NCBI GenBank assembly: GCA_000165345.1
Contig: CM000433.1
Span: forward strand, 32,001 to 96,000
Length of the DNA stretch: 64,000 nt
Direction of reading: 5' to 3'
Numbering within the stretch: the stretch's first letter is position 1; the number at the start of each line of letters is the position of its first letter. Position numbers and translations under genes: made by a program. The notes beneath the pieces were generated by a model. That model searched no databases. It was not told the DNA's origin and saw nothing but the letters and a program-made list of their open reading frames with translations. Of the stretch, positions 48,034-55,154 are shown piece by piece.

Positions 48034-48095
48034 TATCTATACAATACCGGTATGACTATTAGAAAAAAAAATTACATGTAATTTCCACATGAATA
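48034..48095. promoter_or_regulatory. Three-part motif copy A: ATACCGGTAT ... TTACATGTAA-ATTTCCACATGAATAA
   Basis: Palindromic 10-mer ATACCGGTAT at 48034-48043. Palindromic TTACATGTAA at 48072-48081. ATTTCCACATG at 48081-48091. Located in the 1.2-kb spacer between the MFS gene start (47669, minus) and the F-box gene (48855). Confidence 0.5.
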
Positions 48096-48482
48096 AAATT
48101 AATTATAATTTTTTAAAGTGATTTTATTATTAATTCCAAAAATTTTTAGAAGAAAATTATTTTTTTTTTGATAAAATAAATAACTCATTAATAAAATCTT
48201 TAATGAAACAAACTATGTGTAGATTATAACCTAATTATAAATAGCAATAAATTTATTATTCATTTTTTTTCTTATTTATAATTAGTCATTTTATTAATAT
48301 GTATCAAGTAGCTACAAACTAATCATTGTAAAACAATAATTTAATTTAAATATTCCAAAACTTTATTCACTTTTTATTATGACTTTCATTATCTTTAAAA
48401 AAAAAATCATGTCAACTTCCCCCTCTTTATAAATCTATCTCTTACAATTTAACTTTGACATTTTCCCCACACTATTGCAAAA

Positions 48483-48509
48483 TTGCCGCCCACACTTTTA
48501 GGCGGGAAG
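48483..48509. promoter_or_regulatory. TTGCCGCCCACACTTTTAGGCGGGAAGTGTGG: two E2F-like cores (CCGCCC / GGCGGGAA) in inverted orientation, flanked by a CACACTT/AAGTGTG inverted repeat
   Basis: About 350 bp upstream of the F-box-like gene ATG (48855). Confidence 0.4.
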
Positions 48510-48854
48510 TGTGGATGTATAGTCAGGAAATGCACAAAGTGGTCAGAAAAAGGAGTAAGAGAAATGTTTATTAGATTTGTTTTAATTTACTGCAGATTTA
48601 TTAAAAAAAAAAGAAAATGTGGAAGATCAGAAGATATTTAATTGATTTATTTTAGATTGGTTAAAATTATTAATTTAAAACAAATCAATTATATTATACT
48701 ATGAATTTAAAGGTATTAATAAAGAAAATTTCAGTTAGATCAAATAGTGTAGTGTAAGAAAGTAAAGAGTGAAAAAAATAATAAAAAGAAGTTTCAAGTT
48801 AAGTATTAAACATAAGAGTATAAGGAAGGAAGGAAGGAAAGGAGGAAAAAAAAA

Positions 48855-50294
48855 ATGGCATTTCAGCAATTAAACAAAGATTTAATTGGATTAATTTCAT
48901 CATTTTTACCGTATGATGAAATAATAATCAATTTAAGAAATGTGAATAAACAATGGAAAGATTCAATAAACAGTTCATATGATTGTTGGCTAAATATAGA
49001 TTTAACAGAAACTATGACTGAATTTCAATGTTCCAAAGAGGACATTTCATTAGAAGAAATTAAAATGTATAGTAATATCATTTCAAGCATTAGATTATCA
49101 AATCCAATAAATAATATCAGTGGATTTCTAAGTAAAATGATCCTAATAAATGATAAATCTAATAATTATGAAAGATGTAAGATGTGGAACAAATTAGAAA
49201 ATATAGAAATATATAATAAAAGTTTAATAATACCCATAAAAAATAATAAAAATTATCATCTTCTACCTTTTAAATCTTTATTTCGTCTTGGAATTAATGA
49301 AAATATTTTACAATTATTAAAGTATTATGAGATTTCAAACAAAAAAAGTATGGATGAGTCTGAAAATAATTGTGATATTAAATATTTTATGAATAGTTTT
49401 ACTGATATTATTAATTATTATCCATTCAAATCTGTAAAAAGAATTATTATTGACTATCCAATCAGTACAAAAGAATTAAATATATTAAGCAATTGCTTTC
49501 CGTGCTTGAAAGATATTGTAATTACACGTCTCTTTCATGAAACAAATACTTATAATAGTCATTATGAAGAATTCACTCAAGAAAATAGAAGATTAAGTTT
49601 TGGATCAGAAATTGGTTCAGGTGATGATATATCATCTAGATATGGAAATTTATCTATTGATGATGAAAATGAATTTCATTTTGAAAATGAAATAATCGCT
49701 TGTTGGGAAGCTATTTATAATTTTCTACAAGTTATACCTCCAAATCAGCTTAGAATCCTTCAATTTAATGTTATCCCTTCTCCTAATCCAAAATCAGGAA
49801 AATGGACAACTGATAGTACTATTTCAAGAATTGTTTCAGAAAATACCAAAAATGGTTGTAATTATATTAATCATAACAATAATTATAAAAATGATAATAT
49901 CTGCAATAACCAAAATATATTATATTCTGTTAATGATGACAAAAATGAAAAACAAATTCTCGAGTCTGTTGAAATTTATAAAGCCATAAAAAGAAGTAAT
50001 AGAGAATATATTGATTATAAAAATAAAATCATGAGAACTAATGAGTATTATAATAATAATAGTAATAATGATAATTCTAGTATATTCAATCATTCAAGTT
50101 CAATGATTAACTTTGACGAAGTTGGTGATAAACTTATGAAATATATACTTGATATGCATTCTGAGTCTTTAGTTGCATTATCATGTCCAGATTTAGAAGT
50201 TTCTTATGCTTTATATAAAAGATTACTTAATCAATGTCCAAAACTTAAGCTTTGGGATTTACCAGGATGGAGAATATTTTCATGTATCAATTAA
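48855..50294 (+). CDS. F-box-like / LRR-like protein (479 aa), hypothetical
   Basis: ATG at 48855. The N-terminus LIGLISSFLPYDEIIINLRNVNKQWKD fits the F-box pattern (L..I..FL...-..L..VCK.W). The C-terminal LSCPDLEVSYALYKRLLNQCPKLKLWDL resembles an LRR cap. TAA stop at 50292-50294 overlaps the convergent VTC4 gene end. Confidence 0.35.
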   Translation: MAFQQLNKDLIGLISSFLPYDEIIINLRNVNKQWKDSINSSYDCWLNIDLTETMTEFQCSKEDISLEEIKMYSNIISSIRLSNPINNISGFLSKMILINDKSNNYERCKMWNKLENIEIYNKSLIIPIKNNKNYHLLPFKSLFRLGINENILQLLKYYEISNKKSMDESENNCDIKYFMNSFTDIINYYPFKSVKRIIIDYPISTKELNILSNCFPCLKDIVITRLFHETNTYNSHYEEFTQENRRLSFGSEIGSGDDISSRYGNLSIDDENEFHFENEIIACWEAIYNFLQVIPPNQLRILQFNVIPSPNPKSGKWTTDSTISRIVSENTKNGCNYINHNNNYKNDNICNNQNILYSVNDDKNEKQILESVEIYKAIKRSNREYIDYKNKIMRTNEYYNNNSNNDNSSIFNHSSSMINFDEVGDKLMKYILDMHSESLVALSCPDLEVSYALYKRLLNQCPKLKLWDLPGWRIFSCIN

Positions 50295-52728: not shown

Positions 52729-53021
52729 TCATATATTAAATTCACCAAGTTATTAATAATATACAAATTTATAATTTTCAAGCAAATTACCAAATTAAGT
52801 GCATTCAATATATAAATTAAAGTCAATTAATTCAATAGTTTGTTTTATTTTTATAATTATTAATTTTTTTTTAATCAAATTTAATAAAATATCCAAATTC
52901 TTTTTTTTTTCATATAAATATTATTATTGACTTTTTTCGAGTGATTTATGATATTTTGAATAAATAATATAAAATATCCAAAAAATAATATGAATATGAA
53001 TATTAATAATAAATATTCAAA

Positions 53022-54443
53022 TTATTGATTATTTGATTTCTTTTCTTCAATTGATCCAAAATTATAGAATTCTTGAAAATCATTATTAATATCTAATAAC
53101 TTATAAGAGAATTCTTTAGGTTTATAATTACTATCTTTATAATTTGATAATACACTATAAATCCAGTCAATATAAACCATAGAATATTTAGTTAAACAAG
53201 AATGACCTTCACCAAGCATTAATGTATTTTTAATGTTAGCTTTGAAGTTATTTATTAAATACTTAATATCTTTTTTTGCACTTCTAAATGGAAATACAAA
53301 ATCTGGATTGCAATAAGTAAGTAAGATAGGGGTCTTCAAACCTTCATTTGTAATTAAAGGATCCATTGATATTAATTTCTTCATTGCTCTTTCAGGTAGA
53401 AAGCTTGCAGTAGAAACCAATCCTCCTAGAACATATTTCGTTCTCAAAGTAACAGAAAGACTTAATGCACCACCTTGACTATATCCATAAATGAAAATTC
53501 TTTTTGGATCATATTTTTCAACTTCAATTAGATAATTAATTAACATAATAACAGATTCAACAGAATACATCCATTGTTTTAAATTAACTTGCTTTAGTCT
53601 AACTCCAAAAGCAAAGTCTGCCCAAGCATATCTATAAACCCATTTAATTGAGCCAATAGGTTTAAATTTTCTCAAAAAAGGATGTACAAAAATGATTCCA
53701 GTATCTTTTCTAAATTGATCACCATACATCTTCATTTGTGAAATAAATGGATAATATGTATACTTGAATGCTTCCAAATAAATTTGGTCAGAACTTACTC
53801 CTAATAAAGAAATGATAATATTTTTAGGACGTCTTGGTTTAAAAATTTCGAGGATACTTGAATAGTCACCAGGAGTTACACTATTTGAATATAGGTCAAA
53901 ATTATCTAAAGAATGACATTTAGTGGATGTACATCTATTAAATTCCGTGGTTTCATTATCTTGAATTGTTTGATTAATGCCATAGTAATATGTTTCATTT
54001 GCTTTCAAAGTTGTAATATCTGTTTGATTGGTAAAATTTAAATTTTGATGATAATTAAGAATTAAATATTCTTCAAAAGAGAAGGCTTTAGCAATTTTTC
54101 CAGGATGTCTTGGTTGTTTTTTCTTTTTTCTTTTTAGTCTGAAATAATTGAAAAATCTCCATATTTTAGATTTTGTAAATCTTTCTGGGTTTAAATATGG
54201 GTCCTCATAATTTAAAGCCTCACTTTTTGCTTTTTCTTTCAAATTTTTATTAATTAATCTAAGTCTTTTTAAAGTTCTTTCTAGATGAATCAATGAATTC
54301 TGATCTTTACTGAAAAATAGTAATGGAGAATAATAAGTTAAACTTGGAATGTTATGTGTATCAATCTTTTCGATATAAATTGTGGAATTCTTTGAATATA
54401 CAGCTTTAATTATAATAATAAATAAAAATGTTATCAATTTCAT
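53022..54443 (-). CDS. Secreted/membrane alpha/beta-hydrolase (phospholipase/carboxylesterase-like, GYSQGG nucleophile elbow)
   Basis: The listed start 54449 is TTG. The real ATG is at 54443 (MKLITFLFIIIIKAVYS, signal peptide). The GxSxG serine-hydrolase motif IFIYGYSQGGALSLSV appears in the phospholipase/carboxylesterase (Abhydrolase_2) configuration. TAA stop. Confidence 0.6.
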   Translation of the reverse strand: MKLITFLFIIIIKAVYSKNSTIYIEKIDTHNIPSLTYYSPLLFFSKDQNSLIHLERTLKRLRLINKNLKEKAKSEALNYEDPYLNPERFTKSKIWRFFNYFRLKRKKKKQPRHPGKIAKAFSFEEYLILNYHQNLNFTNQTDITTLKANETYYYGINQTIQDNETTEFNRCTSTKCHSLDNFDLYSNSVTPGDYSSILEIFKPRRPKNIIISLLGVSSDQIYLEAFKYTYYPFISQMKMYGDQFRKDTGIIFVHPFLRKFKPIGSIKWVYRYAWADFAFGVRLKQVNLKQWMYSVESVIMLINYLIEVEKYDPKRIFIYGYSQGGALSLSVTLRTKYVLGGLVSTASFLPERAMKKLISMDPLITNEGLKTPILLTYCNPDFVFPFRSAKKDIKYLINNFKANIKNTLMLGEGHSCLTKYSMVYIDWIYSVLSNYKDSNYKPKEFSYKLLDINNDFQEFYNFGSIEEKKSNNQ

Positions 54444-55095
54444 GCTCAAACTTATAATTTAATTATATTAATGAATTATTACATTAATTAATGCAAATTT
54501 ACTCAATTAAATTGATACTTGTCTTATCAAATTTTTTCTTCGGTGTTTAATTATTATATTAAAGTAATTCCAACTTCAGTTTTACTTGGAATAAAGAATG
54601 AACCTTAACTTAGAACTTGCTTTATTTATTAATATTAAATAATATCTTTGCAATATAAATCTTTCTTCTTTTTTTTTTTTATAATATATATATAGGTAAC
54701 TTTAAATAATTGAATGCAGGCATAATGCATATGTCTATTAATTTTAATGCAAAGTTTTTTTTTAATTATTATTTTTTTAATCAAATTAAAAAGATTCCAT
54801 TAATATATTAACTATCAGTATTATTCTTTTTAATTATTTAATTTTATCTTATTTTCTTTAATTTAAATTATTATGGTAATTTCTTTTAATTCATGAAATG
54901 CCAATTATTCAAGGTTTTTTTTTCAATATCATAATATTAAGATTGTTACAATTATCACTTTTGTATTCTTAATGAATTCCTTTTATCTAAATACTCATAA
55001 TTTAATTTTATTAGAAAATTTTATACATTTTTATATATTATGTAAAATATTGGCATTTCTTTTTAAATGTGTTTTCCCCCCTTGATTAATAATGC

Positions 55096-55154
55096 ATACC
55101 GGTATTTAAAATTACGTGTAAAAAAATTTCCACATGCAATAATATTACGTGTAA
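55096..55154. promoter_or_regulatory. Three-part motif copy B: ATACCGGTAT ... TTACGTGTAA-ATTTCCACATGCAATAA ... TTACGTGTAA
   Basis: ATACCGGTAT at 55096-55105. TTACGTGTAA at 55112-55121 and again at 55145-55154. ATTTCCACATGCAAT at 55127-55140. Located about 650 bp upstream of the hydrolase gene start (54443, minus). Confidence 0.5.

Follow-up and report, generated by a model that had tools for sequence, protein, structure and literature searches.

Why should two otherwise unrelated intergenic spacers carry the same short palindromic words in the same order? The question is raised by a 64,000-bp stretch of contig CM000433.1 (hereafter the window; G+C content ∼22%), placed by its proteins on Cryptosporidium parvum chromosome 5, ∼100–120 kb from one end. 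Spacer A is the divergent spacer between an MFS transporter gene (cgd5_280/290) and an F-box gene (cgd5_300), and spacer B, 7 kb away, lies between cgd5_320 and cgd5_330. A first-pass annotation of the window had proposed a modular cis-regulatory cassette at both places, and phylogenetic footprinting in up to seven Cryptosporidium species strongly favors this proposal over a repeat remnant or chance. We put at roughly 75% the probability of a composite cis-regulatory module with independent copies at the two places, i.e. a putative cluster of binding sites spanning ∼60–130 bp (modules A and B).

Words shared by the two spacers

The perfect 10-nt palindrome ATACCGGTAT (box 1) has two exact copies in the 64 kb, at 48044–48053 in spacer A and at 55096–55105 in spacer B. 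TTACRTGTAA (box 2) occurs in exact form at 48072, 55112 and 55145 only, so that both words are present in both spacers, the latter twice in spacer B, as the first-pass annotation had it. Its third element, ATTTCCACATG(A/C)AATAA, had to be redrawn: it is exact in spacer B but has two mismatches in spacer A, and the form shared by the two is AATTTCCACATG (box 3; 48080–48091 and 55125–55136), past which the copies are shifted by one base of register (GAATAAA vs. GCAATAA). The three elements stand in identical order in both spacers (48044–48091 and 55096–55154) with unequal spacing. The flanks are indeed unrelated, as comparison of spacer A with spacer B by blastn and a repeat search returned only low-complexity A/T matches outside the boxes.

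The motif had been described as three-part, which proved too narrow: there are four to five parts, copy A also holding a second TCCACAT word (at 48004) and TGCATGCAAT (at 47971). Module A (47971–48097) has at its left edge the AP2_1-type palindrome TGCATGCAAT (47971–47980, core TGCATGCA at 47971–47978), followed after 20 nt by box 0, TTGTCCACATTAA (48001–48013, plus strand), after another 30 nt by ATACCGGTAT, and after 18 nt by box 2, here the perfect palindrome TTACATGTAA (48072–48081, an exact match), to which box 3, TTTCCACATGAATAAA (48082–48097, plus strand), is directly joined. Module B (55096–55154) reads ATACCGGTAT, 6 nt, TTACGTGTAA (box 2, 55112–55121), 5 nt, TTTCCACATGCAATAA (box 3, 55127–55142), 2 nt and TTACGTGTAA once more (second box 2, 55145–55154); both copies of TTACGTGTAA are exact matches, and these elements are given on the plus strand. 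TGCATGCAAT, box 1 of either module and box 2 of module A have no strand. On the minus strand, box 3 of module B is TGCATGTGGA, which contains the AP2-type word TGCATGTG. The counterpart of TGCATGCAAT is CATGCAAT, fused to box 3 in module B, and the 10-mer CATGCAATAA is common to spacers A and B.

Sharing on this scale exceeds what the base composition predicts. Five ten-mers with at least three G/C are common to spacers A and B, vs. 0.32 expected from dinucleotide shuffles (P ∼0.005). In the 16.4 kb of the window that lies outside open reading frames (non-ORF DNA), a composition model predicts 0.006 copies of ATACCGGTAT (two found), 0.05 of TTACGTGTAA (two found) and 0.07 of TCCACATG (three found, all of them non-ORF, the third exact copy being at 6631), so that the words are 40- to 300-fold above the model. 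Palindromes of the form TAC-NN-GTA number 8 in non-ORF DNA vs. 2.1 expected, and five of the eight fall inside modules A and B. For single words, window-wide shuffle tests reached moderate significance only.

Conservation across Cryptosporidium species

Syntenic loci were compared in C. meleagridis, chipmunk genotype I, C. canis, C. felis, C. ryanae and C. muris using VTC4 as the anchor, and spacer A of C. bovis and C. ryanae was reached via MFS orthologues. Alignments were made for five species (C. parvum, C. meleagridis, chipmunk genotype I, C. canis and C. felis; "the five species" below), in which 17–19% of columns are invariant and C. parvum and C. felis are ∼47% identical. The words are selectively maintained, being nearly unchanged while the surrounding DNA has diverged. 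Invariant runs of at least 6 nt in spacer A comprise TTGTCCACAT, ATACCGGTA and TTACATG together with three blocks towards cgd5_300, namely TCCCCA (G-box-like), AAGTGGTCA and TAGATTT. TCCACATGCAA, in box 3, is the sole run of this length in the whole alignment of spacer B, where neither it nor a flanking TTACGTG is ever lost. Since AT-rich spacers do not align reliably, the conservation test was repeated without alignment: TCCACAT was the sole 7-mer with at least two G/C present in 10 of 10 spacers, and none of 300 dinucleotide shuffles gave any such word. Of all the words TCCACAT is the most conserved and the most general, ahead of the palindromes.

In module A, box 0 is a 10-nt invariant run, TTGTCCACAT (48001–48010), in the five species and TATCCACTTAA in C. 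bovis and C. ryanae. Box 1 is invariant in the five species as ATACCGGTA, is GTACCGGTAT in C. bovis and is degenerate in C. ryanae; the TTACATG of box 2 is likewise invariant in the five and is represented by CTACATGTAA in C. bovis and C. ryanae. Box 3 has the form T(T/G)TCC(A/G)CAT in the five species and CCACATGCA in the other two. Conservation of module B is more uneven: box 1 is kept in C. parvum, C. meleagridis and C. canis but lost in chipmunk genotype I and C. felis, CATGCAAT is kept in the same three and altered in the same two, box 2 follows T(T/G)A(C/T)GTGT.A in C. parvum, C. meleagridis, chipmunk genotype I and C. canis, and TTACGTG lies 3′ of box 3 in C. parvum, C. meleagridis, C. 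canis and C. felis. At the cgd5_330 end of spacer B in C. ryanae, TGCATGTGGA, the exact reverse complement of TCCACATGCA, is found inverted among several TGCATG words. Ten C. parvum assemblies have invariant boxes, but each spacer shows only one or two differences in all, and this comparison is hence uninformative.

When the spacers are viewed anchored on the boxes, box order is constant in every species and the gaps vary, from 10–19 nt (A) and 6–13 nt (B) between boxes 1 and 2, and from 2–4 nt (A) and 5–7 nt (B) between boxes 2 and 3. These differences are not multiples of three, which indicates that the modules are not coding sequence. The F-box/MFS pair has moved as a unit, away from VTC4, in C. 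bovis and C. ryanae, and its spacer retains the order TATCCACTTAA, (G)TACCGGTAT (C. bovis only), CTACATGTAA, CCACATGCA at ∼300–390 bp from the MFS start. No MFS paralogue that could carry a further copy of the module turned up, the search returning orthologues only.

The rearrangement itself places the F-box/MFS pair and VTC4 on different contigs in C. ryanae and C. bovis (L059 and L060 vs. L015), unlike in C. parvum, C. felis and C. muris, and in the two species a PITH-domain gene and a CHD1-like helicase gene replace the pair beside VTC4. The gene of 360 amino acids beside VTC4 in C. ryanae is no F-box orthologue, and the true F-box/MFS spacer carries the module. Spacer B of C. ryanae also contains an unannotated stretch of ∼480 bp (L015 ∼7369–7848, reversed; positions 240–720 of the 820 in the spacer) that is far GC-richer than its flanks and absent from the other species. 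Taken whole, the spacer has 44% G+C, vs. 18–30% for spacer B in the other species. The stretch could be an unannotated gene or an insertion.

Nearer to cgd5_300, spacer A holds a second conserved set at 48455–48580, made up of TTCCCCACAC (G-box-like), GCCGCCC...TTTAGGCGGGAAG (E2F-like), AAGTGGTCA and TTATTAGATTT. These blocks are invariant or nearly so from C. parvum to C. felis and are probably the cgd5_300 promoter.

Related sites elsewhere in the window

The third copy of TCCACATG belongs to a single site at 6628–6669 (plus strand) in the spacer between TRM10 (cgd5_120) and the ferlin-like gene cgd5_130, where TTATCCACATGAAT is followed ∼20 nt later by the AP2_2-type word TGCACACACA. This TCCACATG is kept in an 84%-identical species, in C. 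canis (inverted) and in C. felis; GCACACAC adjoins it each time, and TGCACACAC always adjoins it in the other species. The C. canis element is the 13-nt TTATCCACATGAA on the opposite strand, so the element is independent of orientation, which points to recognition as double-stranded DNA and argues against a role at the RNA level.

A weaker relative had been noted at 58982, and a box-1-like word is present there, ATACCCGGTACC (58981–58992, plus strand). It lies upstream of cgd5_330 in a divergent spacer, with a G-run and the invariant CCCGCCTAA after it. It is itself conserved between species: kept in C. meleagridis, it is ATAACCGGTACC (closer to box 1) in chipmunk genotype I and CGGTACC in C. 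canis, and is absent in C. felis. TTACRTG words number 12 in the non-ORF DNA of the window, with several adjoining E2F-like sites. Overall, the three words look like separate items of regulatory vocabulary that were combined twice, in modules A and B.

Clusters of TTAC(A/G)TG include three within 90 bp at 32834–32920 and two 23 bp apart at 14031/14054 (14031–14060), and single words at 24370–24396 and 40659–40675 stand directly beside E2F-like GGCGCC or CCCGCC sites. Upstream of cgd5_130, at ∼6838–6915, a 25-nt block, GAC(C/T)ATAGACAGGCGG(G/C)ACGTACAC, and a GATCTTAAAGTAAAAA block hardly vary among C. parvum, the 84%-identical species, C. canis and C. felis, and contain E2F-like GGCGGGA. An inverted pair, TCCACATAGATGTGGA, at 21507–21522 lies inside a long ORF (18997–22854) and is probably coincidental coding sequence. 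A metagenome scan for boxes 1, 2 and 3 together gave 39 matches, close to the chance expectation by a rough estimate, all on unrelated and mostly GC-rich contigs; the one AT-rich match (L022) had no similarity to Cryptosporidium, and no further loci were gained.

Known motifs and candidate readers

A 2025 review recognizes six C. parvum motif families (AP2_1, AP2_2, G-box, E2F, GAGA and CAAT-box), almost none of them functionally validated, and AP2 specificities limited to AP2_1-like, AP2_2-like/GTGTGT, G-box, GCGTGCA and AAAA; the specificity of cgd4_3820 is GGTGCACC according to the primary paper. Neither ATACCGGTAT nor TTACRTGTAA matches a C. parvum motif or AP2 specificity listed in the review. 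The box strings were not found in the apicomplexan motif papers that were searched (on Cryptosporidium and on Plasmodium ApiAP2 specificities). No published match to ATACCGGTAT was found, and literature searches with the ATACCGGTAT and TCCACAT strings retrieved primers and unrelated papers only.

The AP2_1 site is known from protein-binding microarrays of the ApiAP2 domains of cgd2_3490, cgd1_3520, cgd8_3230 and cgd5_4250, and TGCATGYR, enriched in macrogamont promoters, fits the microarray sites of cgd2_3490 and cgd1_3520 (PMC11078545). Modules A and B resemble this family in that TGCATGCA at 47971–47978 matches (T/C)GCATGC(A/G), in that the minus strand of box 3 in module B, TGCATGTG(GA), is an exact TGCATG(T/C)(G/A) at 55131–55138, and in their upstream, intergenic position, clustered with other words and within about 1 kb upstream of a gene. 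They differ in that the AP2_1/TGCATGYR consensus is not matched by box 0 (TAATGTGG), by boxes 1 and 2 or, in module A, by box 3 (TTCATGTG), and in that none of the neighboring genes with data shows female enrichment. The TGCATG core is missing from box 0 (TAATGTGGA) and from box 3 as it stands in module A (TTCATGTGGA), and because these two are equally conserved, the constrained part is ATGTGGA, which lies outside the published AP2_1 consensus. Of the readers suggested at first pass, an AP2-like factor stands in part: it fits the organism and the TGCATGTG of module B, but not ATACCGGTAT or TTACRTGTAA. An AP2_1-type ApiAP2 domain is a plausible reader of TCCACATGCA.

The other suggestion, a bZIP/bHLH-like factor, fares less well, as neither box 2 nor box 3 is a canonical palindrome of these families with abutting half-sites (CRE or PAR TTACGTAA, G-box CACGTG, E-box CANNTG). 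Box 2, TTAC-RT-GTAA, is a 10-mer whose half-sites are two bases further apart than those of TTACGTAA, and the CACATG of box 3 qualifies as an E-box in form alone, since the conserved TCCACAT extends beyond it. The published inventory of C. parvum transcription factors (PMC3734150) has three CCAAT-binding proteins and one further bZIP but not a single bHLH, and on that list a bHLH factor seems an unlikely reader.

Two further sets of published motifs come close to the boxes. All four conserved TCCACAT sites are exact reverse-strand fits to A(T/A)G(T/A)GGA.A, an orphan motif that Oberstaller et al. (2013, PMC3734150) described from the upstream regions of Class II COWP genes (late, rising from 36 h and peaking at 72 h), namely ATGTGGAAA twice (48082–48090 and 55127–55135), ATGTGGACA (48002–48010) and ATGTGGATA (6629–6637), the comparison being with the published consensus rather than with the promoter sequences. 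That motif was derived from five promoters. None of the present genes is an oocyst-wall gene, and a late-female pattern is not apparent in their expression. Among the 25 overrepresented C. parvum upstream motifs found with the FIRE algorithm (PMC3734150), Motif 9 YTTACAT ("unknown set 2") and Motif 7 ACATGY (AP2_1-like) overlap to give (Y)TTACATGY, i.e. box 2 of module A, but they were reported as two separate 6–7-mers without a 10-nt palindrome, and neither of them accommodates the ACGTG variant of module B.

A comparable architecture occurs in Plasmodium. SPE2 is a bipartite element that forms a subtelomeric tandem array tied to heterochromatin and is bound by PfSIP2 (PFF0200c). It has in common with modules A and B short words in fixed order with short spacers, conserved upstream of genes, and multi-domain or dimeric readers (which would be predicted here); it differs in its sequences, and the present modules are single and lie in ordinary spacers.

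Gene context and expression

The modules are set among genes cgd5_280/290 to cgd5_330. Module A lies about 330–420 bp from the start codon of the MFS transporter gene (start 47669, minus strand) and about 760 bp from that of cgd5_300 (start 48855, plus strand). VTC4 (cgd5_310, minus strand) is located between cgd5_300 and cgd5_320, a secreted carboxylesterase/lysophospholipase gene (start ∼54443, minus strand), and module B is ∼650–700 bp upstream of the start of the latter. On its other side is cgd5_330 (1167 amino acids, minus strand, stop 55296). No tRNA genes were found in the window.

Closer to cgd5_320, ∼260–290 bp upstream of its start, the block AATGCAGG(C/T)ATAATGCATATGTCTAT at 54700–54735 is kept in C. 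parvum, C. meleagridis, chipmunk genotype I and largely in C. canis, and may be the proximal promoter of this gene. Within the MFS gene, 46466–46921 (minus strand) differs from the newer C. parvum assembly CP029784.1 by ∼25 clustered substitutions (mostly G to A/T) and two indels that break the gene into three ORFs, vs. one 676-amino-acid ORF in CP029784.1. This looks like low sequence quality of the older assembly rather than biology, and N runs near 60130 (60126–60168) are a defect of the same kind.

Expression data were found for two of the neighboring genes. In females, the secreted hydrolase gene cgd5_320 is expressed below its asexual-stage level (log2 fold change −1.79), with more expression in vivo than in vitro (+2.90), and it is shared with sporozoite-expressed genes; cgd5_130 is classed as "Asexual Specific" (−3.64). 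Macrogamont-specific neighbors as in Hasan et al. 2024 were not seen, although this concerns two genes only and at low expression. The female-specific label is thus not transferable to these modules, and the expression link is weak and in part contrary. It is not contradictory, because AP2_1-type readers are also expressed in asexual stages (2025 review).

Proposed function and alternative explanations

The proposed mechanism is one that we infer from the anatomy and conservation of the modules. Sequence-specific factors gathered on the cluster of sites would set the transcription of the neighboring gene by reading three words, TCCACAT(G), often extended to TCCACATGCA, the palindrome ATACCGGTAT and the palindrome-like TTAC(A/G)TG(TAA). 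The palindromes would imply dimeric or two-domain readers, and the separation of boxes 2 and 3, always 2–7 bp, suggests that their readers bind side by side. Spacing elsewhere is unconstrained, and TCCACAT can stand in either orientation. A more specific and rather doubtful version holds that ATACCGGTAT and TTAC(A/G)TGTAA are versions of one TAC-NN-GTA palindrome with one new dimeric reader which, together with the reader of TCCACAT, would control a stage-specific regulon of intestinal Cryptosporidium. Such a factor would lie outside the AP2 domains of known specificity or be an AP2 protein silent on binding microarrays, and the two neighboring genes with data suggest that the targets would be invasive-stage (merozoite/sporozoite) genes that are down in females. 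This version is weakened by the fact that the central bases are also conserved and that module B keeps only TTACGTG well.

Several observations weigh against a composite cis-regulatory module. Just two full modules and two single words are found in ∼64 kb of a 9.1-Mb genome plus the orthologous loci. In the gastric species C. muris, module A could not be traced and spacer B gave just a weak, partial match (TGCATG near GCCGGTAT). The literature ties TGCATGYR and ATGTGGA to female or late genes, and cgd5_320 and cgd5_130 run contrary to this in both cases. Lastly, module B lies ∼140 bp past the stop codon of cgd5_330 and the 6631 site ∼137 bp past that of cgd5_120, a position in which a role at the 3′ end or in an antisense promoter would be possible.

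This last geometry, which leaves module B much further (∼650 bp) from the start of cgd5_320, speaks for the idea that unannotated transcripts start at the modules, which would then serve as their promoters or initiation regions and not as regulators of the annotated neighbors. Module B would give rise to an antisense long non-coding RNA that enters cgd5_330 at its 3′ end, and module A would be the far-upstream portion of the promoter of cgd5_300. Both modules are oriented on the plus strand, module A is upstream of a plus-strand gene, and stage-specific antisense transcription is widespread in C. parvum (PMC7840661). Yet cgd5_330 and its neighbors go unmentioned in the supplementary tables of that paper (which are possibly incomplete), spacer A has its own promoter-like G-box/E2F-like block ∼350–400 bp from the cgd5_300 start, and the inversion in C. 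canis shows that orientation is inessential; we consider this explanation unlikely. A DNA element other than a promoter but likewise read by sequence-specific proteins, such as a boundary or insulator, a roadblock terminator between tightly spaced genes, a replication origin or another chromosome-maintenance site, seems slightly less likely again. It would suit palindromic sites that tolerate either orientation, and of the three TCCACATG loci two lie just 3′ of one gene and upstream of the next. Box 1 and ATACCCGGTACC also resemble Reb1-type TTACCCGG sites, which serve as roadblocks in yeast. It is at odds with module A, which sits between two divergent starts with no 3′ end nearby, and with the overlap between the words and motif families enriched upstream of co-expressed genes, and no precedent for it was found in Cryptosporidium. 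A structured or functional RNA, or an element of a 3′ untranslated region acting at the RNA level, is very improbable. Module B and the 6631 site could fall within such regions and the palindromes could pair, but Rfam gave no match at the gathering threshold (window) or at E≤1 (either spacer), folding energies were no better than those of shuffles (z −1.3 to +0.8), there is no conserved RNA-body sequence beside the boxes, module A is outside annotated transcripts and the 6631 element is inverted in C. canis.

Descent from a dispersed repeat, a transposon end or an ancient segmental duplication would account for the recurrence of the words, with their order unchanged, at a distance of 7 kb. We regard this as scarcely credible, as there is no similarity past the boxes that would betray a repeat with extended flanks and there are no terminal inverted repeats or target-site duplications. 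The repeat search yielded A/T low-complexity families only. The boxes are fixed while their spacing varies between copies and species, the opposite of neutral repeat decay, and both copies are orthologous as far as C. felis, with module A and part of B traceable in C. bovis and/or C. ryanae. Chance co-occurrence in AT-rich DNA is just as hard to credit: the words are short and the single-word tests were modest, but the excess of shared ten-mers and of non-ORF copies, along with joint conservation at both loci in five to seven species, agrees with the first-pass judgment that chance is not the explanation.

Implications

Gene regulation in Cryptosporidium is poorly mapped, and the two modules supply three words kept by selection, two of which match no listed C. 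parvum specificity. As a natural pair, spacers A and B lend themselves to use as test promoters in transgenic reporters. TCCACAT joins the orphan COWP motif to the TGCATG family of AP2 sites, and the longer TGCATGTGGA may be the real recognition unit. If ATACCGGTAT and TTAC(A/G)TGTAA were versions of one palindrome, this would be a new entry on a very short list of regulatory words in Cryptosporidium. Without a regulon, the modules would stand as a well-documented local case of promoter conservation; if a regulon exists, its reader would be a candidate stage regulator in a pathogen for which there is no fully effective treatment or vaccine.

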